From the NCBI GenBank assembly GCA_051879215.1, contig JBJELP010000267.1, forward strand, positions 5,028 through 69,027: DNA of 64,000 nucleotides. Direction: 5' to 3'. Source of the stretch: Lachnospiraceae bacterium. GTDB taxonomy: Bacteria > Bacillota > Clostridia > Lachnospirales > Lachnospiraceae. Below the pieces are notes generated by a model that worked only from the letters and a program-made list of their open reading frames with translations, was not told the origin of the DNA and did no database searches. Each line of letters opens with the position of its first letter. Position 1 is the first letter of the stretch. Positions 40,110 through 64,000 of this stretch are shown here, piece by piece. The position numbers and the translations under genes are program-made.

Positions 40110-41480
40110 TTATTTTTGCAATTCTTTTCCGTGAACGGAACACTGTTGTCTGCGAAAAAGTCTGCGAAAAGCCAGATGGTTCAAAAATGTGCAAATCCCC
40201 CAGCAAATCGGATAGGACAGGTAGATGGATTCAACCGTTCCTTTCCAGGCTGCATAGGTAAAAATCCATGTAAGACGGAAAACAACCGAGCACAGAATCG
40301 AAATAAACAGCGGTGTTTTCGCATCACCTAAGCCACGCTCGCAGCCGCTTATCACATTCATGGTTCCGCACAGACCAAAAAACAGGCACATATAGAACAT
40401 TCTGACCTGTGCGTTTTCAACTATGGCTGAATCTGTGGTAAATAGCCATACCAGTTTTGATGAAAAAGCAAACAGCAGAATGCCTGCAAGCTCCGCCGCT
40501 GCAAAAACAGTTATCAACGTGGTTCGATAGACTGTCCGGACGCGATCCATTTTTCCGGCACCGTAATTCTGGGAAATAAAGACGGTACTTGCACTGGCAA
40601 AGCCTGTAAATGTGATGACCATGAGTCCCTCAATTGAAGTTGCAACCGTGTTTCCGGCAATCACGGTATTGTCAAACCGATTGATGACCGAAGCAATAAT
40701 GACACCGGAAAGATTCAGAATAATGCTCTCCAGCGAAGCGGGGATGCCAACAGCAAATACCTGTTTCATACCACGAAAAACGGTCAGCTTTCGAAGATTC
40801 AGCTTCAGTTCATTTTCCTGTTTTCCCAGATAAAATGTCATGGCAGCTGCCAGCAGAAACTGCGATATTACCGTTGCAGCCGCAACGCCCGCCACATTCC
40901 AATCCAGGACAATGACAAAAAACAGGTTCAGGGCAATATTGATACAGGATGCGGCAGCCTGAAAGAAGAAAGGAGTATACGAGTTTCCCTTTGCCTGAAG
41001 AGCCGATGAAAGGAAACCGGTCAGCATGGTCAAAGGAACACCAAGAAAATAGATTCGGAAATACAGCAGCGCATCCGGTAAAATATCATCCGGACAATTC
41101 AGCAGATGCAGAATCCGTTTTGAGCATACGATTGCTGCAAAGCTGAGTGCCGCACCGAGAACCAGTGCTGTGACCGGAAGGCTGTGCAGCAGTTCGCTGA
41201 CCTTTTCGCGTTGATTCTCACCGAAATATTTTCCAAAAACAACTGTCACGCCGACAGCAAGTGCAGTGAATCCGCCCACAAGAAAGTTCAGAACGGCTGC
41301 GGAAACACCTATGGCAGAGATTGCATTCTCATGCCCGAATCGTCCGATCACAATTGTATCTGCACAGGAAAACAGCATGGTCAGCAGTGACGAAACGGAT
41401 ATCGGTAAAGCAAACATCAGCATTCCCTTCAGTATGCTGCTTTCCAGGGGGTTCACTTCAGATTTAAACCTCATTGACAA
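40110..41480 (-). CDS. MATE-family efflux transporter
   Basis: 456 aa with about 12 TM helices and a MatE-type N-terminus (ILKGMLMFALPISVSSLLTMLFSCADTIVIGRFG). Confidence 0.85.
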   Translation of the reverse strand: MSMRFKSEVNPLESSILKGMLMFALPISVSSLLTMLFSCADTIVIGRFGHENAISAIGVSAAVLNFLVGGFTALAVGVTVVFGKYFGENQREKVSELLHSLPVTALVLGAALSFAAIVCSKRILHLLNCPDDILPDALLYFRIYFLGVPLTMLTGFLSSALQAKGNSYTPFFFQAAASCINIALNLFFVIVLDWNVAGVAAATVISQFLLAAAMTFYLGKQENELKLNLRKLTVFRGMKQVFAVGIPASLESIILNLSGVIIASVINRFDNTVIAGNTVATSIEGLMVITFTGFASASTVFISQNYGAGKMDRVRTVYRTTLITVFAAAELAGILLFAFSSKLVWLFTTDSAIVENAQVRMFYMCLFFGLCGTMNVISGCERGLGDAKTPLFISILCSVVFRLTWIFTYAAWKGTVESIYLSYPICWGICTFLNHLAFRRLFRRQQCSVHGKELQK

Positions 41481-41607
41481 GTCTCCCTTCTTATCATAGA
41501 CTATGAGCCAAGGGACAAAAGGGCATGTATTTCATAAATCCTTTTGACCTCAGATCATAGGTTCCATCATAAAGTATAACGTTAGGAAACAGTCAAGAGG
41601 CAATTGT

Positions 41608-42333
41608 ATGAATACTGGAGAATTTGCAAAATATTGCGGTACAGAAAAGCGCACCTTATTTTACTATGACCAGATGGGGCTTCTGAAGCCCATGGCAATT
41701 CACGAAAACGGCTACCGGGAATATGCCCCAGGCCAGATTGAAACCATGGATATGATCAAGATCCTGCAGGCAGCAGGATTTACCCTGAAGCAGATCCGGG
41801 AGATCATCACAGGAGGAGCAGAAATTCGCCGCACCTCATTCTTTAAGGCAGTAGATTCTATTGACGACAAGATTCATGAACTGGAAAAAATGAAAGCATA
41901 TATTGAGAGGAAGGAAAAACTCTGGAAGGAGTACTGTGATTTTCGGGATAGCGGCATTCCGTATCGGTATCAATACTGTCGCCTGACCTACTTTGAAAAA
42001 GCCATATCTTCCGACGACCATTTCTTTGGCTTTATCCAGGATGGCGATTATGACTTGTTCTCCGTTGATACAATGCATCAGCTTTCGGTGATGAAAGAGG
42101 ATGAAAAGGGGGTTTGTAAAGAAGGGAAAGCAATCTGCTTTTTTCTGGAAATGCCTTCCGAATCAGGTGATCCTGTTGCAGTTACTCAGGATAAATTACA
42201 GGAATTCGGATTTCGCGGAGAAAATCGTTACTATATGCGTTCCATCCCGCATCTGCTCATAGAGCAGAGCGGGACAGCTATTATCAAGGTTACTGTTTTT
42301 GGTGAATTTCCGTCAGATCAGATCCATCCATAA
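41608..42333 (+). CDS. MerR-family transcriptional regulator with a C-terminal effector-binding domain
   Basis: HTH MNTGEFAKYCGTEKRTLFYYDQMGLLKP. Divergent from the MATE pump, a BmrR-like arrangement. Confidence 0.8.
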   Translation: MNTGEFAKYCGTEKRTLFYYDQMGLLKPMAIHENGYREYAPGQIETMDMIKILQAAGFTLKQIREIITGGAEIRRTSFFKAVDSIDDKIHELEKMKAYIERKEKLWKEYCDFRDSGIPYRYQYCRLTYFEKAISSDDHFFGFIQDGDYDLFSVDTMHQLSVMKEDEKGVCKEGKAICFFLEMPSESGDPVAVTQDKLQEFGFRGENRYYMRSIPHLLIEQSGTAIIKVTVFGEFPSDQIHP

Positions 42334-43094
42334 TGCTTACATGCATTATAGATTCCGTCATCATCTGCAGCCGTCGTTATATAAGATGCCTTCGCCTTCA
42401 GTTCATCCACAGCATTGCCCATAGCAATGCTTGTCCACTGATCCGTAAACATACTGAGGTCATTTCTTCCATCTCCGAATACAACCACATCTTTGATGCT
42501 GCCGCCCATCATTTCCACCATGCGGATGATTCCTTCTGCCTTATCGGTTGGCTCCACAAAAAAGTATTCTTCATCGTACCGGCACCAGGGCAATTCCTTC
42601 AATGTTTCCAGACTGTATTCCACCGGCTCTTTGCAGGCAACATAAACCTTATAGATTGCATTATATTTTCTGGGATTCAGACCTTCTTCCACAATGGTTT
42701 CCATAAAAGCGTCATTCTTTGTCAATTCTAAAAAACGATCATCAGGAGAAAAGCGTTTTCTCTCATTTTCCGGGGATATCGACCAGGGAATTCCTTTCTC
42801 CGTGCATTCATCAATCAGAGCAATGCATTTATCAAAATCCAGAGGGCGGATTTCCAGCAGTTTATCATCTGCGGTCAGACCATGCCCTCCATCAGATACC
42901 ATATTGTGAAAACCAAGGTCCTTCATGACCTGTTCCGCCATGGCATGTCCTCTTCCTGTTGCTATGGAAAGAAAATGCCCTTTTTCTTCCAGCATCTGTA
43001 ATGTCTGCATTGTAGACTCAGGCACATACTGAACTCCCATTTTGCCGGCAAGAAGTGTTCCATCAATATCAAAAAAGAAATATTTTCTGCTCAT
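42318..43094 (-). CDS. Cof-type HAD-IIB phosphatase
   Basis: Motif I FFFDIDGTLL and motif IV FGDGRNDLSMF. Confidence 0.85.
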   Translation of the reverse strand: MSRKYFFFDIDGTLLAGKMGVQYVPESTMQTLQMLEEKGHFLSIATGRGHAMAEQVMKDLGFHNMVSDGGHGLTADDKLLEIRPLDFDKCIALIDECTEKGIPWSISPENERKRFSPDDRFLELTKNDAFMETIVEEGLNPRKYNAIYKVYVACKEPVEYSLETLKELPWCRYDEEYFFVEPTDKAEGIIRMVEMMGGSIKDVVVFGDGRNDLSMFTDQWTSIAMGNAVDELKAKASYITTAADDDGIYNACKHYGWI

Positions 43095-43140
43095 TATCAC
43101 ATGTCCTTATCGTTTTGTATACACCGATTTCTTCATCATT

Positions 43141-43860
43141 CTATTCACACCGACTCTTTTGTCTCAGCTTCTCCATCTGCTCGTCAATGATACGGAAATG
43201 TTTATCCATGGCTTTTATTCCGGCGTCCATATTTTTACTGAGCAGACTTTCATAAATATCCCAGTGGGCTTTCCGCAGCTGTTCTGCTTTGATCCGGCTT
43301 ACCAGAATCCGGCCGCGCATATTTTCAATAAACCGGTCAAGCAGCTTGTCCAGCATAGAATAATATAAAATCAGAAGGCGGTTATGAGATGCTTTCACCA
43401 GCGTATGATGAAAATTGTTATCCAGAACGGCACTTTCCTTTGTGCTCATGGGCTGATCCATCTGTACCAGAATCTGATGAATCGACTCGATCTCTTCTTC
43501 TGTCGCATTGTTCATGGCCAGCTTCAATGCCATCTGCTCATAACCGGTGCGGATTTCCAGTATTTCCGTATAATCAATCTCCATCAATGCCATTACCATA
43601 TTGACCGATTTCAGCATATACTCTTCCGGATCGCATCGTACATAATTCCCGCTGCCCTGCAGACACTCAATCAGACCCGTCATCTCCAGCATATGCATCA
43701 CTTCCCGCACGGAATTGCGGCTGACCCCCAGCTTTTCTGCAATATCACGCTCCGTATCAATCTTATCATTCAATTTCAATTCCCCGGACAGGATCTTTTC
43801 TGAAAAATAATTAAAGATATATTCATACGTCTTCTGTCCATTTAATTTCATATTATCCAT
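43141..43860 (-). CDS. GntR-family (FadR/FCD subfamily) transcriptional regulator
   Basis: wHTH (ERDIAEKLGVSRNSVREVMHMLEMTGLI) plus an all-helical FCD domain. Start chosen at ATG 43860 (AGAAGG 6 nt upstream); the start is uncertain. Confidence 0.8.
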   Translation of the reverse strand: MDNMKLNGQKTYEYIFNYFSEKILSGELKLNDKIDTERDIAEKLGVSRNSVREVMHMLEMTGLIECLQGSGNYVRCDPEEYMLKSVNMVMALMEIDYTEILEIRTGYEQMALKLAMNNATEEEIESIHQILVQMDQPMSTKESAVLDNNFHHTLVKASHNRLLILYYSMLDKLLDRFIENMRGRILVSRIKAEQLRKAHWDIYESLLSKNMDAGIKAMDKHFRIIDEQMEKLRQKSRCE

Positions 43861-44137
43861 GGCGGACCTTCTTTCTCTGCCGGTAAATCCCTTCTCCGTT
43901 TTCATAGAGATCTGGCGCCGGATTCAGTTTGCAAAGCAAATTTTCCTATGTTCCCCAATATGATTTTTTGTTGGTTAGTATACCCTTATTTGTTTCCATA
44001 AGCAAGAAGTTTTCTGCCAAAAAGCCATATCTCTTTTTAATGACACTACTATTATGCACTTGTTCTGTTTCCGCAGTTTGGATATAATAAAACAAACAAA
44101 GTATGATCAGAAAACAAATTGAAAGGCGGTATCCCGT

Positions 44138-44719
44138 ATGTCTATCCGGAACATCCTTGAAAACCTGATAAATGATTACCCCATCTGCGAATACTGCTTC
44201 GGTACAACCGATCAGATTCCCTTTTCCGAGAAAGTCCGCTATATCTGCGAAAATGAATGCTCCCGCTGCAATCACTGCTGGGCCTGTCCGCCTTATGTGG
44301 GAAGTGTCCACGACAATATGAAAAAATGCCTGCAGTATCAACATTTTTTCCTTTTTTCCACAGTAAATCCGGTGACCGATGCGTGGAATACGGAAGAATG
44401 TCTCATGGCCAAAAAAGATCATGAAGCCGTTACCCGGAACATCCGAAAACAATTATGTGAAGAAACCGGACTTCCCATGGCCGCACCGGAGGATGCAAAT
44501 CCAGAAGAAAAAACTTCTCCTTTTCTGGTTCTCTCCACAGGCTGTGCCATCTGCGATGTCTGTGCCTGCCCCGATGAGCCCTGCCGCCATCCGGAAGAAC
44601 GGCTGAATTCCATGGAAAGCCATGGGATAGTCATCTTCTCTCTGGCAGAAGCCATGGAAATGTGTTACAACTACGGAAACGATTCCGCCACCTATTTCAG
44701 CATGGTGCTGTACAATTGA
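44138..44719 (+). CDS. DUF2284-type predicted metal-binding (Cys-rich) protein
   Basis: CEYC...CENECSRCNHCWACPP...CAICDVCACPDEPCRHP cysteine clusters. Confidence 0.7.
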   Translation: MSIRNILENLINDYPICEYCFGTTDQIPFSEKVRYICENECSRCNHCWACPPYVGSVHDNMKKCLQYQHFFLFSTVNPVTDAWNTEECLMAKKDHEAVTRNIRKQLCEETGLPMAAPEDANPEEKTSPFLVLSTGCAICDVCACPDEPCRHPEERLNSMESHGIVIFSLAEAMEMCYNYGNDSATYFSMVLYN

Positions 44720-44820
44720 CCTTTTCATCCAGCTCCCGTTTCAGTCCTTCTATCTCCTTCCGGGACACGCTCTCGCTCAGGTCCAAACGTAGCGGTTCTA
44801 AGCTCTCGTTCTTCCTTTCA

Positions 44821-44892
44821 GGAAGTCCGATCGCTAAGAGCCGACGTTTGCAATGGTCCCTTAAAGGAGATTTTCGGACTTCCACTGGGATG
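44821..44892 (+). repeat. Left ~72-bp terminal inverted repeat (IR-L) of the TIR cassette
   Basis: ggaagtccgatcgctaagagccgacgtttgcaatggtcccttaaaggagattttcggacttccactgggatg matches the reverse complement of 47300-47372 at about 63 of 73 aligned positions (hand alignment, one 1-nt gap). Confidence 0.85.
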
Positions 44893-44922
44893 ATATAAAT
44901 ACAAAAACAGAAGGATAATACT

Positions 44923-47139
44923 ATGTGGAACAAATATACATCTATCAAAGATCAAGAAGTCGAATTAATAAAAGAAAAGCTAATCAAGGATGGAAAAATA
45001 GCATCAGAATACTTTACTATTGATAACAATTTGTGTAAAAACTCAGGAGCAACACATTATCCCATTGTACTGATTATCGATAGTATAGAAACAAAGTCAT
45101 TTGATAATGCTATTGAAGTGATTTCCGAGATTATTAAGTGTAAAGATATTCTTTCTGATTCAATAGATATTGCTGTTGTTGAATATAGTAGTACTGTAAC
45201 AATTAATAGAGTTTTTTCGTATATAGAAGAAAATTTTATTTTTTCTCCATCCGACTATCAGCAAGATGCATTACCGAATTTGGGACCAGCTTTGTTTTTA
45301 TCATGGTATATTTCGGAATTGCGCATTCTTCAATATACAGAAGCGGGCATAGATTATAAACAACCCGTATTTATTTTGATAAGTTCATTTATTAACAAGT
45401 GTGATACTCAAATCGAAGGAAAATCATTATTTTCTAATGAAGACTCATGGATGATATCTCTATATAACCAGAAACAGGCAGCCCATAAATTGGGATTGAT
45501 AAAAGTTCCAATTTATGAAGAGAATACAGAGTATTATATCATGCTGAACGGTACAAGATATGATAAAAAAAGTATTCGTGAGACACTGCAAAGATTATTT
45601 GCCATACTAATAAAACCAATTGCTGCTTCAGATGTTCCAGAGAGAGAGGGGGATTTGAGCGTCAAACATTCTTTTCTGGAATATAATGATGGTTCTGAAA
45701 AAAGAGTTGAAACAAGTAAAAATGACCACACTATTCGGTTGCCCCAAAAAGGCTCAAGGTCTAAAATTTATGAAAAACTTGAAAGACAAAAACTACGAGA
45801 GGCACTTTTACGAGGAGATGGGACAGCTTCAATTACGCAAGATAATCCTATTGAATCTCCAAAATATATCGATGCAGCTGAGGAACGCCAAAGACTACGA
45901 AAAGCGCTTCTGCATGAAGGTCAGTATGAAGATTCAACAAATATTTTAAGGAATAGATATATCATATTAGATGATGATGGTTCATCTTCAAAAAATAGTA
46001 ACAATGTATCGTGTATACAAGTACCAAACGCTAAATTAGCTGGAGGGGCTGATCATGTTCGGTGTAAAAAATGTGGGAACATTTATTGGAAAGATTATAA
46101 TTTTTGTCCAGAATGTGGAACGAAACAATTTTGTCAAAATGAGTCTGGTTTCATACTATCAAGAGTAAATTTTTCAGCAACCGCTCCTAAAAAACTCTCG
46201 TGCAAAGTGTTCAATATCATTCATCTTATTGTATATGAAGATGAGTATCGTTCAGTTGTAAATAATATTATTCAGGATAAAGAAATACCACAGAGAGAAA
46301 TACCAGGTGGTACGACAAGGATTGCAGATGAATCAATTGTGAAAATCGTATTGAAGTCGGCAGACTTCGAAATCTATTATGAAGAAGAACGTACTTGGAA
46401 AGGACGATATATTGATTTTTCAATACCTGTAAAATTACCGGCAAAATTTGATAAGAAACAGGTTGCTTTCCAGACACTTATTTATGTTAATGATATCATA
46501 GCAACTCGCTTATCGTTTGTTGTGAAATGTGAAGCATTTAGAAGTCAGAAAATATCCATTTCTCGAGAGGATATTTTCTCTGCGTTCATTTCATATGCCA
46601 GTCAAGACCGAAGTAAGGCTGCTATGGTAATCCAGGGAATTCGTAAAGCACGACCTGATATGGATATTTTCTTTGATGTAGAAAGTCTTCGAAGCGGAGA
46701 AAACTGGGAGAATACTATTCATGAAGAAATAGGTCAAAGAGATATATTATATTTGTTTTGGTCAAATTATGCAAAGCAGTCGAAATGGGTAAATACAGAA
46801 TGGCGATATGCATACAGTATCAACGGGGAAGACGGTATAGAACCGATACCTCTTGAACCGGCATGGGAATGTCCGCCACCTGAAGAGTTAAAGAATAAGC
46901 ATTTTAATGATAATTTGCTCTACCTGATTAATCAGAATACTTCTAAAGATAAAAAAATTCGACCAGAAGGTATCATTAAGTCACAAAAAGAGGTTAACAT
47001 AGATAAGGAGTATTTGATTGCAAAGATAGCGGAATTAAAAGAACTACTTGAAATCGGTCTTTATTCTGAAAACGAGTATGAAAATGATCGTAAAGCTCTT
47101 TTAGAGGCCTATAGAAAAAATCAGAAATTTTTAAAATAG
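44923..47139 (+). CDS. 738-aa multidomain protein: TerY-like vWA (degenerate MIDAS), duplicated helical motif, zinc ribbon, beta-rich domain, TIR, SHOCT
   Basis: vWA-like aa ~45-215 (YPIVLIIDSIET...IAVVEYSSTV...LPNLGPAL...KQPVFILISS). CxxC-x13-CxxC at aa 381-398. TIR at aa ~549-645 (FISYASQD...DIFFD...ILYLFWSNYAKQSKWVNTEWRYA). SHOCT-like tail at aa ~696-733 (IAKIAELKELLEIGLYSENEYENDRKALL). RBS GAAGGA 7 nt upstream of the ATG. Confidence 0.8.
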   Translation: MWNKYTSIKDQEVELIKEKLIKDGKIASEYFTIDNNLCKNSGATHYPIVLIIDSIETKSFDNAIEVISEIIKCKDILSDSIDIAVVEYSSTVTINRVFSYIEENFIFSPSDYQQDALPNLGPALFLSWYISELRILQYTEAGIDYKQPVFILISSFINKCDTQIEGKSLFSNEDSWMISLYNQKQAAHKLGLIKVPIYEENTEYYIMLNGTRYDKKSIRETLQRLFAILIKPIAASDVPEREGDLSVKHSFLEYNDGSEKRVETSKNDHTIRLPQKGSRSKIYEKLERQKLREALLRGDGTASITQDNPIESPKYIDAAEERQRLRKALLHEGQYEDSTNILRNRYIILDDDGSSSKNSNNVSCIQVPNAKLAGGADHVRCKKCGNIYWKDYNFCPECGTKQFCQNESGFILSRVNFSATAPKKLSCKVFNIIHLIVYEDEYRSVVNNIIQDKEIPQREIPGGTTRIADESIVKIVLKSADFEIYYEEERTWKGRYIDFSIPVKLPAKFDKKQVAFQTLIYVNDIIATRLSFVVKCEAFRSQKISISREDIFSAFISYASQDRSKAAMVIQGIRKARPDMDIFFDVESLRSGENWENTIHEEIGQRDILYLFWSNYAKQSKWVNTEWRYAYSINGEDGIEPIPLEPAWECPPPEELKNKHFNDNLLYLINQNTSKDKKIRPEGIIKSQKEVNIDKEYLIAKIAELKELLEIGLYSENEYENDRKALLEAYRKNQKFLK

Positions 47140-47203
47140 ACGAGAGACTGCAAACATTATTTTTGCCAGCCTAAAAAAACTTATGTTTAAATAACATAAA
47201 GAT

Positions 47204-47272
47204 ATGCTCCCTCTTAAGTAAACAAGTTTTTTATTTCACTTGTCTTGCCTGAAAGGGAGCATCTCAATTTTC
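47204..47272 (+). terminator. Candidate terminator / nested hairpin downstream of the TIR gene
   Basis: 9-bp stem ATGCTCCCT/AGGGAGCAT (47204-47212 / 47254-47262) enclosing an inner 6-bp hairpin ACAAGT/ACTTGT, followed by CTCAATTTTC. Confidence 0.4.
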
Positions 47273-47299
47273 ACAGCCCGGATGCCTTTTTCTTTTTAC

Positions 47300-47372
47300 C
47301 ATTCCAGTGAAAGCCCAATAAATCTCCTTCAAGGGACCATTTCAAACGCCGGTTCTTAGCGATCGGACTTTC
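47300..47372 (-). repeat. Right ~73-bp terminal inverted repeat (IR-R) of the TIR cassette
   Basis: Its reverse complement gaaagtccgatcgctaagaaccggcgtttgaaatggtcccttgaaggagatttattgggctttcactggaatg aligns with IR-L. Confidence 0.85.
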
Positions 47373-47380
47373 ACATATGA

Positions 47381-49195
47381 TCAATCATAATATCCGCATA
47401 CATCACATCGTAAGCATCTTCCGGATTCCTGCATGGCTTCTTCATATGTCATGGGACATTCCACATGTTCAAAATCATGCTTACGCTGGTATGCAGGTCT
47501 TTCCCCGATATTGACCCGTCCGGTGGGAATACGGTTGTTGGGTTTCGGCATGGGTGCTTTCACACCGCAGTCCAGAACACTGCTGCAGCCCAGATATTCA
47601 TCAATATTCCATGCTGCCACCTTTCCTGCCGCAATGGCACGGATTGCTGTGGCAGGGCCGGTTGCACAGTCGCCGCCGACAAATACACCGGGCATTCCTT
47701 CCACTGCAGTATCAAGTCCTGCCTGCAGAACATTTCTATTGGCGGGAATACCGAAGTTTTCAAAGGGTTTGCTGACGATATCCTGACCAACTGCGATCAG
47801 TACAATATCACAGGCAATGCGCTCCGGATCCTTTGATGCATTCATGGGAGCCGGACGGCCTCCCCGGTCATAGGGACCGATCATCTGGGGCTGAACCCAC
47901 AGAGCGGCACACTTGCCTTCCGCATCCTTTTCTATGCTTACGGGAGCCTGCAGAAGCATCAGCTCAATACCCTCCATGATGGCGGATTCAATTTCCGTTT
48001 CCAGAGCTGTCATGTCTTCATGACGTCTTCTGTATACAATCCGCACATCCGCTGCTCCGCAGCGCAGGGCACTTCTCGCCGCATCCATGGCAACATTGCC
48101 TCCGCCGATGACACATACGGTTTTTCCGGTGTAGTCCGGACGATTTCCATGGCCGATCTGGTCCAGCATTTCAACTGCGGAGAATACATTTTCCGCATCT
48201 GCACCTTCCATACGAAGCTTCTTGCCCACCTGTGCACCAATTGCCACATACATGGCATCATGACTGTTTCGTACTTCTTCGATGGAAATATCCACACCTA
48301 CATTGACATTGTATTTTACTTCAATATTGCCGGTGGAAAGGATGGCATTCATATCCTCATCCAGCCGGTCCTTGGGGAAACGATAGTTGGGAATGCCGTA
48401 CATCAGCATGCCGCCCAGATGTTCCTTTGCTTCGTATACTGTAACCTTATGGCCCATCAGAGACAGGAAATAAGCTGCTGTCATACCACTGGGACCGCCG
48501 CCGATAACAGCAACCTTCTTGCCGGTTGACGGGTTGGGAACAGGAACTGCCACCTTATCTGCTGCAATCTGATCCACCGCATATTTTTTGATGCCGCGGA
48601 TATTCACAGAACTGTCAATCAGGTTACGGCGGCATCTTTCCTCACAGGGATGTTCACAGATCATGGCACATGCCGTAGGCAGCGGGTTATCACGGCGGAT
48701 CAGGTTGATTGCATCCGCATAATTACCATCATGCACATGGGCAATATATCCGGGAATATCCACATGGGCCGGGCAAAGGGTCACGCAGGGAATATGTACC
48801 TGATTCTTTTCAGCCGGTTTTCCTGCAATGTATGCAAGATACTGATCGCCGAAAAGACTTAAACTCTCCAGCACCTCTTCACCGGTCTGATATCCGATGG
48901 CACAATCTGCACAGTTGGCAAGCAGATCTGCTGTGGCACGGAACTGAACAAGTGTTTCCGCTGATGCCTTTCCATCAATAATATTCCGCAGCATCATTTC
49001 CAGTTTCGGCATACCCTCGCGACAGGGTGTGCATTTGCCGCAGGACTGACAACGGGATGCGGTAATCAACGCCAGCACCACCTTTAACGGGTCGGTACCC
49101 GGGGGGAAGATACTTGATTTCCCTGCAAGCTTCCGCATCAGACCCTGACTTTTCACGTCATTGCTTTTGCTTTCAGCAAGATACAATTTACTCAT
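47381..49195 (-). CDS. GltD-family (glutamate-synthase small-subunit-like) NAD(P)H oxidoreductase fused to a NuoF-type Fe-S domain
   Basis: N-terminal CQSCGKCTPCREG; a GltD-type Fe-S region (CPAHVDIPGY...CEHPCEERC); GGGPSGMTAAY and a second GGGNVAMD dinucleotide fold. ATG at 49195 follows GAAGGAGAG. Confidence 0.8.
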   Translation of the reverse strand: MSKLYLAESKSNDVKSQGLMRKLAGKSSIFPPGTDPLKVVLALITASRCQSCGKCTPCREGMPKLEMMLRNIIDGKASAETLVQFRATADLLANCADCAIGYQTGEEVLESLSLFGDQYLAYIAGKPAEKNQVHIPCVTLCPAHVDIPGYIAHVHDGNYADAINLIRRDNPLPTACAMICEHPCEERCRRNLIDSSVNIRGIKKYAVDQIAADKVAVPVPNPSTGKKVAVIGGGPSGMTAAYFLSLMGHKVTVYEAKEHLGGMLMYGIPNYRFPKDRLDEDMNAILSTGNIEVKYNVNVGVDISIEEVRNSHDAMYVAIGAQVGKKLRMEGADAENVFSAVEMLDQIGHGNRPDYTGKTVCVIGGGNVAMDAARSALRCGAADVRIVYRRRHEDMTALETEIESAIMEGIELMLLQAPVSIEKDAEGKCAALWVQPQMIGPYDRGGRPAPMNASKDPERIACDIVLIAVGQDIVSKPFENFGIPANRNVLQAGLDTAVEGMPGVFVGGDCATGPATAIRAIAAGKVAAWNIDEYLGCSSVLDCGVKAPMPKPNNRIPTGRVNIGERPAYQRKHDFEHVECPMTYEEAMQESGRCLRCDVCGYYD

Positions 49196-49385
49196 TTTAA
49201 AGCTCTCCTTCACATATATCCTGGGGATACCCTCATTCATAACCATGAAACGCAAAGCATGATTCATTCATGAGGGGAATTAATTGATATACATACAGAC
49301 ATACATCTGCAGCATGATCCTGTCAGACAGAAACATCATCCATTGTACTGGATTCCATACAAGAAAGCAACTATAGATAAATATT

Positions 49386-62284: not shown

Positions 62285-64000
62285 ATGAGAATTACAGATT
62301 TACTGGCTGCAGAAAGCGTATGCCTCAATGGTTCTGCCAGCGATAAGGCAGATGTACTCAATCAGATGGTTGATTTAATGGCAAAAAGCGGAAAGGTATC
62401 TGATCGTGAAATTTACCTGAACGCTGTATTTGCAAGAGAAGAAGAAGGAACCACAGGTGTCGGCGACGGTATCGCCATTCCCCACGGACGCTGCAGCGGT
62501 GTATCCCAGCCCGGTCTGGCTGCCATGGTACTGCCTGCAGGTGTTGATTATCAGGCTCTGGATGATGAACCGGTGCATCTGATTTTCCTGATTGCCGCTC
62601 CCGAAGGCGCAGGAAGTGTGCACATTGATATTTTGAGCAAATTATCCACCATGCTGATGGATGAGCAGTTTGCAGAAAATCTGAAAGCTGCAAAAACCGT
62701 TGATGCCTTCCTGAAAGTGATTGATGACGCAGAAACAGCAAAGGATGCAGAAGAAAAAGCCAAAGCAGAAGCTGCAAAAAATACAGATCTGGCTGCAGAA
62801 CGATCTGCATCCAATCAGAAACTGATTCTGGCAGTTACTGCCTGCCCCACCGGTATCGCCCATACCTATATGGCACAGGAAAGCATTGAAAAAGCTGCAA
62901 AGAAAATGGGATGCATGGTGAAAGTTGAGACAAGAGGATCAGGCGGTGCAAAAAACGTACTGACAGATGAAGAAATTGAAGCAGCAGATGGCATTATCGT
63001 GGCAGCGGATACTAATGTTCCCATGGACCGTTTCGATGGAAAGAAACTGATCGAAGTACAGGTATCCGATGGTATCAGTAAATCCGAACAGCTGGTAAAA
63101 CGGATTATCGATGGTGATGCTCCCGTATATCATGCAGCAAACGGCAGACAGTCCAGCCAGACTCAGACATCCGGAGGCGGTGCGCATGCCATTTACAAGC
63201 ATCTGATGAATGGTGTATCCCATATGCTTCCTTTCGTTGTAGGCGGCGGTATCCTGATTGCACTGGCCTTCCTCATCGATGGCCTCCTGGTGGATCTGAG
63301 TGCTCTCCCTGCCAATGCCGATGAAGCAGCAAAACTGGGTCAGACTATTTCCCGAGCTGACTTTGGTACCATCACACCCATTGCTGCTCTGTTAAAAGCA
63401 AAAATCGGCGGTGTTGCCTTTGGTTTCATGCTTCCCGTGCTGGCCGGTTTCATTGCAATGAGTATCGCAGACCGCCCCGGTCTGGCAGTTGGTTTCGTTG
63501 GCGGTGCCATCGCAGCAAACGGTACATCCGGTTTCCTTGGCGCACTGGCAGCCGGTTTCATTGCAGGTTATCTGGTAAACTTACTGAAAAAAGTATGTGA
63601 CCGTGTAATCCCCAAAGCACTGGATGGTATCAAACCAGTACTTCTTTACCCTGTATTTGGCATTCTCTTTGTCGGTATCATCATGCAGTACATCATCGAA
63701 CCCATTATCGGTATGCTGAATACAGCACTGAATGCCGGTCTCGGCAGTTTAAGCGGTGCAAATGCTATTCTCCTTGGACTGATTCTCGGCGGTATGATGG
63801 CAGTTGATATGGGCGGTCCCTTCAACAAGGCAGCATACGTATTCGGTACTGCATCCATTGCAGCAGGCAACTACAATATCATGGCAGCTGTAATGATCGG
63901 CGGTATGGTTCCTCCCTGCGCGATTGCACTGGCAACCATCCTGTTTAAAAATAAATTTACAGAGTCCGAACGCAAGTCCGGCCCCACAAACTTCATCATG
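62285..64000 (+). CDS. fruA: PTS fructose-specific EIIABC component; 3' end lies outside the window
   Basis: Own translation from ATG 62285 (RBS AAGGAGA). EIIA-Fru (GVGDGIAIPHGR), EIIB (LAVTACPTGIAHTYMA), then EIIC helices. The frame stays open to position 64000. Confidence 0.9.
   Translation, partial: MRITDLLAAESVCLNGSASDKADVLNQMVDLMAKSGKVSDREIYLNAVFAREEEGTTGVGDGIAIPHGRCSGVSQPGLAAMVLPAGVDYQALDDEPVHLIFLIAAPEGAGSVHIDILSKLSTMLMDEQFAENLKAAKTVDAFLKVIDDAETAKDAEEKAKAEAAKNTDLAAERSASNQKLILAVTACPTGIAHTYMAQESIEKAAKKMGCMVKVETRGSGGAKNVLTDEEIEAADGIIVAADTNVPMDRFDGKKLIEVQVSDGISKSEQLVKRIIDGDAPVYHAANGRQSSQTQTSGGGAHAIYKHLMNGVSHMLPFVVGGGILIALAFLIDGLLVDLSALPANADEAAKLGQTISRADFGTITPIAALLKAKIGGVAFGFMLPVLAGFIAMSIADRPGLAVGFVGGAIAANGTSGFLGALAAGFIAGYLVNLLKKVCDRVIPKALDGIKPVLLYPVFGILFVGIIMQYIIEPIIGMLNTALNAGLGSLSGANAILLGLILGGMMAVDMGGPFNKAAYVFGTASIAAGNYNIMAAVMIGGMVPPCAIALATILFKNKFTESERKSGPTNFIM

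Follow-up and report, generated by a model that had tools for sequence, protein, structure and literature searches.

The question raised by this locus is whether the long inverted repeats that flank a TIR-domain gene mark the ends of a mobile element or belong to the sequence that the gene entered. The locus lies in a 64,000-nt stretch of a contig (hereafter the window) from an uncultured Lachnospiraceae metagenome-assembled genome (MAG). The TIR gene occupies the spacer between two convergent host genes, encoding a DUF2284 protein and a GltD-like oxidoreductase, and is bracketed by a left (IR-L) and a right (IR-R) repeat unit, of which IR-L is the right arm of a longer palindrome (PAL). [quoted passage not shown] Our analyses make it likely that the repeats were already in place as members of a low-copy palindromic family, that the TIR gene arrived separately, and that the bracketing results from the convergent orientation of the host genes. 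The two repeats would each have been resident in its own right, as members of a small palindromic repeat family that occupies intergenic regions and is restricted to this Lachnospiraceae lineage, and the TIR gene would be separate foreign DNA of 33% guanine-plus-cytosine (GC) content that entered between PAL and the terminator of the GltD-like gene, either by illegitimate, microhomology-type recombination or by allelic replacement via the flanking genes. As a caution, inverted repeats around a foreign gene are insufficient for a transposon call, because the appearance of transposon ends also arises where host genes converge and each has a copy of one 3' intergenic repeat. The locus also documents a hypervariable, six-allele spacer that has received a solitary TIR gene, and reveals a previously undescribed low-copy palindromic repeat (unit of ~75 nt, doublet of ~170 nt) with a conserved hairpin in an uncultured Lachnospiraceae lineage.

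The inverted repeat pair

The two repeats had been aligned by hand in the first-pass annotation at about 63 of 73 positions with one 1-nt gap, and the computed global alignment of IR-L (44821-44893) with the reverse complement of IR-R gives exactly 63 matches, with 9 mismatches and 1 gap (86.3%). A repeat search in the 4.2-kb region recovered ungapped core arms of 51 nt that are 92% complementary (44823-44873 and 47320-47370), the next-best inverted pair there being only 30 nt at 70%, and blastn lengthened the match to 84 nt (84.5%, 1 gap; 44823-44905 versus 47370-47287). Two sub-patterns of 20-21 nt matched the 64-kb window solely at IR-L and IR-R (0.00 and 0.02 matches expected), a result for which 0/100 shuffles gave two matches, and a sensitive blastn-short search for the repeat returned no match besides the two arms. 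The arms are perfectly identical over 17 nt at most and have no exact 31-mer in common. The GC content of 44899-47268 is 0.333 versus 0.48-0.52 in the flanks and, together with the Pfam assignments of the host genes, agrees with the earlier description of an AT-rich segment bracketed between convergent DUF2284 (plus strand) and GltD-like (minus strand) genes. One open frame is present in IR-R (ESPIAKNRRLKWSLEGDLLGFHW...), and a coding origin of the unit was rejected in view of frame-shifting indels, found in a copy from another MAG (SUG317, described below) and between IR-L and IR-R, where a 1-nt indel breaks any common reading frame, and of substitutions that, by inspection, show no synonymous bias.

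Each repeat occurs alone in related strains

Contigs of related strains were gathered via variants of the DUF2284 protein, and six alleles (A-F) of the DUF2284/GltD-like spacer were recovered. The first-pass annotation had suggested looking for strains with an empty site, and spacers without the TIR gene were indeed found in allele A, in allele B, and in further alleles. Allele A (L053) lacks both the TIR gene and IR-R and consists of DUF2284, PAL, a bidirectional terminator, and the GltD-like gene; its homology to the window is unbroken from 43121 to 44898 at 92% and picks up again at 47380, and its PAL is orthologous to that of the window (92-96%). In allele B (L023, L025, L026, and L029), DUF2284 is followed by a module of three genes for an amino-acid ABC transporter, and then come a terminator hairpin, IR-R, and the GltD-like gene. 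Its DUF2284 is 99-99.5% identical, it has neither the TIR gene nor PAL (and with it IR-L), window positions 47269-47378 are conserved in it at 92-96%, and in L023 the terminator hairpin of the GltD-like gene is intact (GGCAGCC...GGCTGCC plus a T-run). Allele C is that of the window and was also found, 100% identical, as two short Logan contigs (L001 and L002). Allele D (L013-L017, L019, L021, and L054-L058) has a 150-nt spacer with the terminator hairpin only and neither repeat, allele E (L018, L020, and L022) is allele D plus an unrelated insert of ~324 bp, and allele F (L030-L039) is without the GltD-like gene and has DUF2284 directly beside TrkH. Homology breaks at the DUF2284 stop codon, with BLAST breakpoints at 44720 in L013, L023, L029, and L030. 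The spacer is hypervariable and a hot spot for gene turnover.

Each repeat therefore exists independently in TIR-less strains, where its position is unchanged: IR-L stands without the TIR gene or IR-R in L053, and IR-R stands without the TIR gene or IR-L in allele B, orthologous repeat copies being 96% identical. This distribution rules out IR-L and IR-R as the ends of a TIR-gene transposon, and we consider it extremely unlikely that they delimit one TIR-carrying unit of any kind, such as a cargo-carrying MITE-like or composite transposon moved in trans. Such a unit would account for the 84-nt inverted repeats that bracket an AT-rich foreign gene and for the absence of that gene from related strains, but the junctions of the foreign DNA lie inboard of the repeats and not at their outer ends, there is no target-site duplication, the loci of TIR homologues are without the repeat, no second copy of the TIR gene with the repeats was found, and the left element also occurs alone at an unrelated locus in SUG317. 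No transposase lies within ~15 kb; the earlier observation that no transposase, integrase, or recombinase gene lies inside or near the repeats holds for that distance on either side, where no such domain was found. The MITE-like non-autonomous element with TIR cargo is refuted by the solo repeats in L053, in L023, L025, L026, and L029, and in SUG317. The cassette reading is largely borne out in a weak sense, in that the TIR gene came to lie between two resident copies of a structured repeat family. There is no sign that the repeats mobilized it, and the junctions are off the repeat edges.

The same alleles bear on the proposal that the units are hairpin-type site-specific recombination sites (attC- or pdif-like) through which a distant recombinase exchanges TIR and ABC cassettes. 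Like this locus, pdif modules and integron cassettes combine variable gene content at a single site with individual genes flanked by short sequences that are structured or inverted. The units described here are conserved hairpins, variable genes adjoin a unit in the B and C alleles, and the spacer has at least six alleles. On the other hand, homology breaks outside the repeats, at the DUF2284 stop codon and in the terminator loop; allele B has one unit only, allele A has PAL without a cassette, and each repeat also occurs without cargo. In addition, the SUG317 copies are not beside variable cargo, the two window copies are inverted, whereas integron arrays have direct copies, neither an integrase nor an Xer-type gene lies nearby, and no XerC/D-type dif sequence or IntI gene is present here. 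We judge this proposal very unlikely.

Dispersed copies of the repeat

Further copies were sought with the 19-nt core of the unit against one genome per species, and viral, metagenome, plasmid, and phage collections were also scanned. The genome-collection scan gave 9 matches, of which 7 were chance matches to the core only; the real ones were confined to the Lachnospiraceae MAG SUG317. The first SUG317 copy is a complete PAL (L040 7370-7543), 86% identical to window 44728-44887, which sits in a spacer flanked by a fruA-like phosphotransferase system (PTS) gene and a GH18-like gene; a TIR gene is absent from the vicinity. The second (on L046) is the 3' half of the unit; it follows the stop codon of a 164-aa gene and precedes the terminator of that gene. 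Two viral-contig scans with unit cores gave zero matches, the metagenome scan gave 4 matches that were all chance at ~20 bits, PAL had no match in the plasmid and phage collections by distant BLAST, and an nhmmer profile of the unit run over ~450 kb of collected sequence found no further copies. Copy number is low, with four loci in two genomes and presence or absence differing among strains at the DUF2284/GltD-like spacer, and the three paralogous loci show a uniform pairwise identity of 86-88%. The unit of ~73-85 nt has self-complementary ends and occurs as a doublet (PAL, ~170 nt), solo (IR-R), or in truncated pieces, and PAL has the size and form generally expected of MITEs, being shorter than 500 bp and non-coding, with complementary arms. 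This picture comes close to the contrary case named in the first-pass annotation, a common repetitive extragenic palindromic (REP)-like element unrelated to gene-content variation, but the family is low-copy rather than common.

The last 78 nt of the window (63923-64000) are 100% identical to SUG317 L040, and the window ends inside a fruR-fruK-fruA operon. Because the SUG317 PAL follows the fruA-like stop codon, the genome of the window itself may hold a third copy ~400-600 bp past the window end.

Conserved hairpins and placement at gene 3' ends

A weaker partial copy upstream of IR-L had been noted before; it is real but was understated, as it forms the inner part of the ~170-nt PAL. PAL is centered at 44818, and its RNA has a minimum free energy of -65 kcal/mol (z = -5.4). 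The left arm pairs with IR-L in blocks, yet its sequence is so strongly diverged that the unit profile barely picks it up (E=0.62) and that the global identity of the arms is no better than that of shuffled sequence. The consensus hairpin of three PAL copies has 54 pairs, with 98% of cells in standard pairs, and pairing falls to 31-51% when the partners are slid by 1-3 columns. Five pairs are altered on both sides while still paired, a number reached by 5/500 column shuffles, and one compensatory change distinguishes the window PAL from its L053 orthologue. The unit alone keeps a 10-bp closing stem in 5/5 full copies, in agreement with the earlier claim that each unit can fold on itself. Of its pairs, one shows true compensation (G-C/A-U, via a G-U intermediate) and two differ by wobble only. 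Read on the strand sense to the upstream gene, the wobbles in the hairpins are all G-U; on the opposite strand they would be A-C. Single-sequence fold z-scores of individual units are modest (-1.7 to -2.5), and an Rfam 15 scan of 44600-47500 gave sub-threshold chance matches only, none of them on the units. Given so few sequences, the covariation in the hairpins is suggestive but not proof.

At 4/4 independent loci, the unit is oriented like the upstream gene and lies downstream of the stop codon of that gene. The distance from the stop codon is 5 nt between DUF2284 and PAL, 7 nt between the GltD-like gene and IR-R, and 11 nt at L046; at L040 it is ~120 nt, with PAL beyond a terminator. The host terminator comes after the unit at L046 as well as in alleles A and B, and the units most likely sit in transcribed 3' regions. 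The window copies are mutually inverted because the DUF2284 and GltD-like genes converge.

These features raise the alternative that the unit, or PAL, is primarily a functional structured RNA whose copies selection keeps at particular genes, either a cis-acting stabilizer or processing signal of the 3' untranslated region (3'-UTR) or a small RNA, and no mobile relic. The sense placement downstream of a stop codon at 4/4 loci (3 of them within 5-11 nt), the restriction of wobbles to G-U on the sense strand, and the even 86-88% identity of the paralogues, with no recent burst, are what such an RNA would show. However, it has no Rfam match, the sequences are few and the covariation statistics weak, the SUG317 PAL lies downstream of a terminator, and a dispensable repeat fits better with truncated copies and with presence or absence that differs between close strains; we therefore see a primarily functional RNA as rather unlikely. 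The structured pair with a regulatory role, as put forward in the first-pass annotation, is compatible with the conserved hairpins and with the sense-strand 3'-UTR placement.

The TIR gene and its junctions

The coordinates of the features at the locus are collected in Table 1. The window departs from allele A at 44899, and an 8-nt microhomology, AACAGAAG, is common to the L053 host sequence and to the region upstream of the start codon of TIR homologues, which places the left junction between 44899 and 44917. Homology with allele B resumes at 47269 (BLAST) or ~47247 (alignment), inside the terminator of the GltD-like gene. The foreign DNA lies wholly inside both repeats, starting 5-25 nt inboard of PAL and ending 30-50 nt inboard of IR-R. 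A target-site duplication is absent, with no direct repeat among the sequences outside IR-L (...CTTCCTTTCA), outside PAL (TGACCTTT), and outside IR-R (ATATGATCA). The individual copies (window PAL, L040 PAL, and solo units) likewise show no visible target-site duplication; the empty and filled spacers are too diverged for exact comparison.

Table 1. Features at the TIR locus, in window coordinates
Feature	Position	Strand	Basis and remarks
DUF2284 gene (host)	44138..44719	+	Pfam PF10050, E=3.8e-36
PAL: ~170-nt imperfect palindrome/long hairpin	44725..44893	+	Left arm 44725-44815, loop ~44816-44820, right arm 44821-44893 = IR-L
IR-L: repeat unit = PAL right arm, plus A-rich tail still similar to IR-R	44821..44905	+	Repeat search, blastn, alignment
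Foreign AT-rich segment, ~2.35 kb, GC 0.33	44899..47247	+	Junctions: left 44899-44917, right ~47247-47268
TIR-domain protein gene, 738 aa; zinc ribbon ~residues 378-401, TIR_2 at 555-660	44923..47139	+	Pfam TIR_2, E=6.8e-14
Hairpin 3' of TIR gene, likely terminator	47201..47265	+	Inverted repeat, 21-nt arms; right arm overlaps the GltD-like terminator remnant
Bidirectional terminator remnant and A/T tract of the GltD-like gene	47247..47299	-	Common to TIR-less L023 and L029
IR-R: solo unit, sense to the GltD-like gene, start 7 nt past its stop codon	47300..47373	-	Orthologues 96% identical in TIR-less L023/L025/L026/L029
GltD-like NADPH-dependent oxidoreductase gene (host)	47381..49267	-	Pfam Pyr_redox_2, Fer4_20, NADH_4Fe-4S; syntenic in sister strains

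No sigma-70-like promoter able to serve the TIR start codon was found in PAL or in the 30 nt from PAL to the ATG, and no terminator lies between DUF2284 and the TIR gene. Because no convincing promoter of its own and no intervening terminator were found, the gene is probably co-transcribed with DUF2284 through the hairpin. This arrangement invites the reading that the unit or PAL is a so far undescribed, strand-specific structured 3'-UTR element of Lachnospiraceae that also marks a capture site for promoterless foreign genes, such as the TIR gene and, in sister strains, the ABC module. If so, foreign genes would be fixed between the hairpin and the host terminator and co-transcribed with the host gene, and the repeat family would be causally tied to the gain of defense islets and not just adjacent to it; we find this very unlikely. 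The 'MIR319' Rfam match on the hairpin downstream of the TIR gene is below threshold and reflects hairpin shape only.

The apparent lack of a promoter and the long inverted repeats around the whole gene would also suit an inverton, in which the repeats mediate inversion of the TIR gene and thereby switch its expression. This is scarcely credible, as the gene has the same orientation in 3/3 independent assemblies (the window and metagenome contigs L001 and L002), the longest perfect arm identity of 17 nt is poor for homologous inversion, no invertase lies nearby, and each arm predates the TIR gene. The Logan contigs L001 (window 44101-47340) and L002 (44497-47340) both stop at 47340, inside IR-R. 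As the arms have no exact 31-mer in common, these contig ends probably reflect an allele with IR-R that co-occurs in those samples, and neither inversion nor the inverted repeat itself.

In PADLOC, the TIR protein falls in no known defense system, its sole match being a weak one to a ThsB-like protein (E=4e-4). Its homologues (L003-L012; 53-63% identity) occur in tandem arrays of 3-5 different TIR-domain genes, with partners that include TIR+TPR, TIR+protein kinase, TIR+STAND NTPase, and TIR+FtsK-like proteins, whereas the window copy is solitary. The arrays adjoin genes for type IV secretion system (T4SS) coupling proteins/TraG and are probably located on conjugative elements. The repeat is absent from all TIR homologue loci examined, and no second copy of the TIR gene with these repeats was found elsewhere, the other contigs representing the same locus. 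A stretch of ~39 nt in the TIR open reading frame (45580-45616) recurs, ~85% identical, right after the TIR stop codon (47142-47180), possibly as what is left of a paralogous gene that lay downstream in a donor multi-TIR array.

Nature of the repeat family

In form and placement, the family appears to resemble REP singlets and their doublets (REPINs), enterobacterial repetitive intergenic consensus (ERIC) elements, and other bacterial MITEs (PMC3116915; PMC10969869). As in REPINs, an inverted doublet of units with a spacer makes a long hairpin with compensatory changes in its arms, solo units beside doublets look like remnants, and copies are extragenic, some of them just past stop codons. On the other hand, the unit is 73-85 nt as compared with ~20-40 nt for REP, the PAL arms are strongly diverged from each other, a handful of copies was found here as compared with tens to hundreds of REPINs, and no gene for a REP-associated tyrosine transposase (RAYT, an IS200-like Y1 transposase) was seen in the annotated part of the window. 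The repeat shares with ERIC sequences the form of an imperfect palindrome of at least 100 nt, location in intergenic regions that are transcribed (here most likely so), often at gene 3' ends, a copy number that can be low, and strain-variable presence (PMC10969869). ERIC elements alter mRNA stability (PMC10969869), but they are a family of Enterobacteriaceae and Vibrionaceae with no sequence relation to the Lachnospiraceae repeat, for which a role at the RNA level is a prediction only. Correia elements (Correia repeat enclosed elements, CREE) of Neisseria and other MITEs are, like the present repeat, small, non-coding, bounded by inverted repeats, and dispersed in intergenic regions (PMC10969869). 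Such elements are co-transcribed with their neighbors, and their hairpin RNA is processed by RNase III (PMC10969869). More than 100 copies of Correia elements occur, their terminal inverted repeats are defined, and they show a TA target duplication and promoters (PMC10969869), whereas the Lachnospiraceae repeat shows no target-site duplication, no promoter, and very few copies.

We infer that the family may be a decayed MITE- or REPIN-like element whose action, as a hairpin in the 3'-UTR, would be on RNA. What was observed directly is that each repeat exists on its own, that copies are dispersed, that the hairpin is conserved, and where the junctions lie. The family may be the relic of a mobile element, an RNA hairpin with a function in the 3'-UTR, or both. 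Several points weigh against the view of resident repeats and a separately acquired TIR gene. The 'family' rests on few copies, at four loci in two partly scanned genomes. None of the recovered alleles has both repeats without the TIR gene, and variable DNA abuts a unit in the B and C alleles, which makes some link between the repeat and gene turnover possible. With neither a target-site duplication nor a cognate transposase found, a MITE-type origin is by analogy only, and the RNA-level role of the repeat is a prediction from sequence; compensatory changes in a palindrome can also come from arm-to-arm gene conversion without selection.

Neighboring variable DNA

The ~324-bp insert of allele E (L018 3731-4060; also in L020 and L022) lies inside the spacer terminator, whose left arm is imperfectly duplicated over ~19 nt bordering the insert; the insert itself has terminal inverted repeats that match perfectly over 15 nt (GCACTTCAAGCCAGT/ACTGGCTTGAAGTGC). 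An Rfam scan of the insert in L018 gave nothing above threshold. A 91-nt piece of the insert recurs, 86% identical, in SUG317 at L040 4027-4117, which points to a second dispersed repeat family. In addition, a second variable segment lies only 1-4 kb from the TIR locus: window 40110-43100 carries MatE, MerR-family, and HAD-hydrolase genes between SDH_alpha and GntR genes, and these genes are absent in sister strains such as L013, where SDH_alpha and GntR adjoin.

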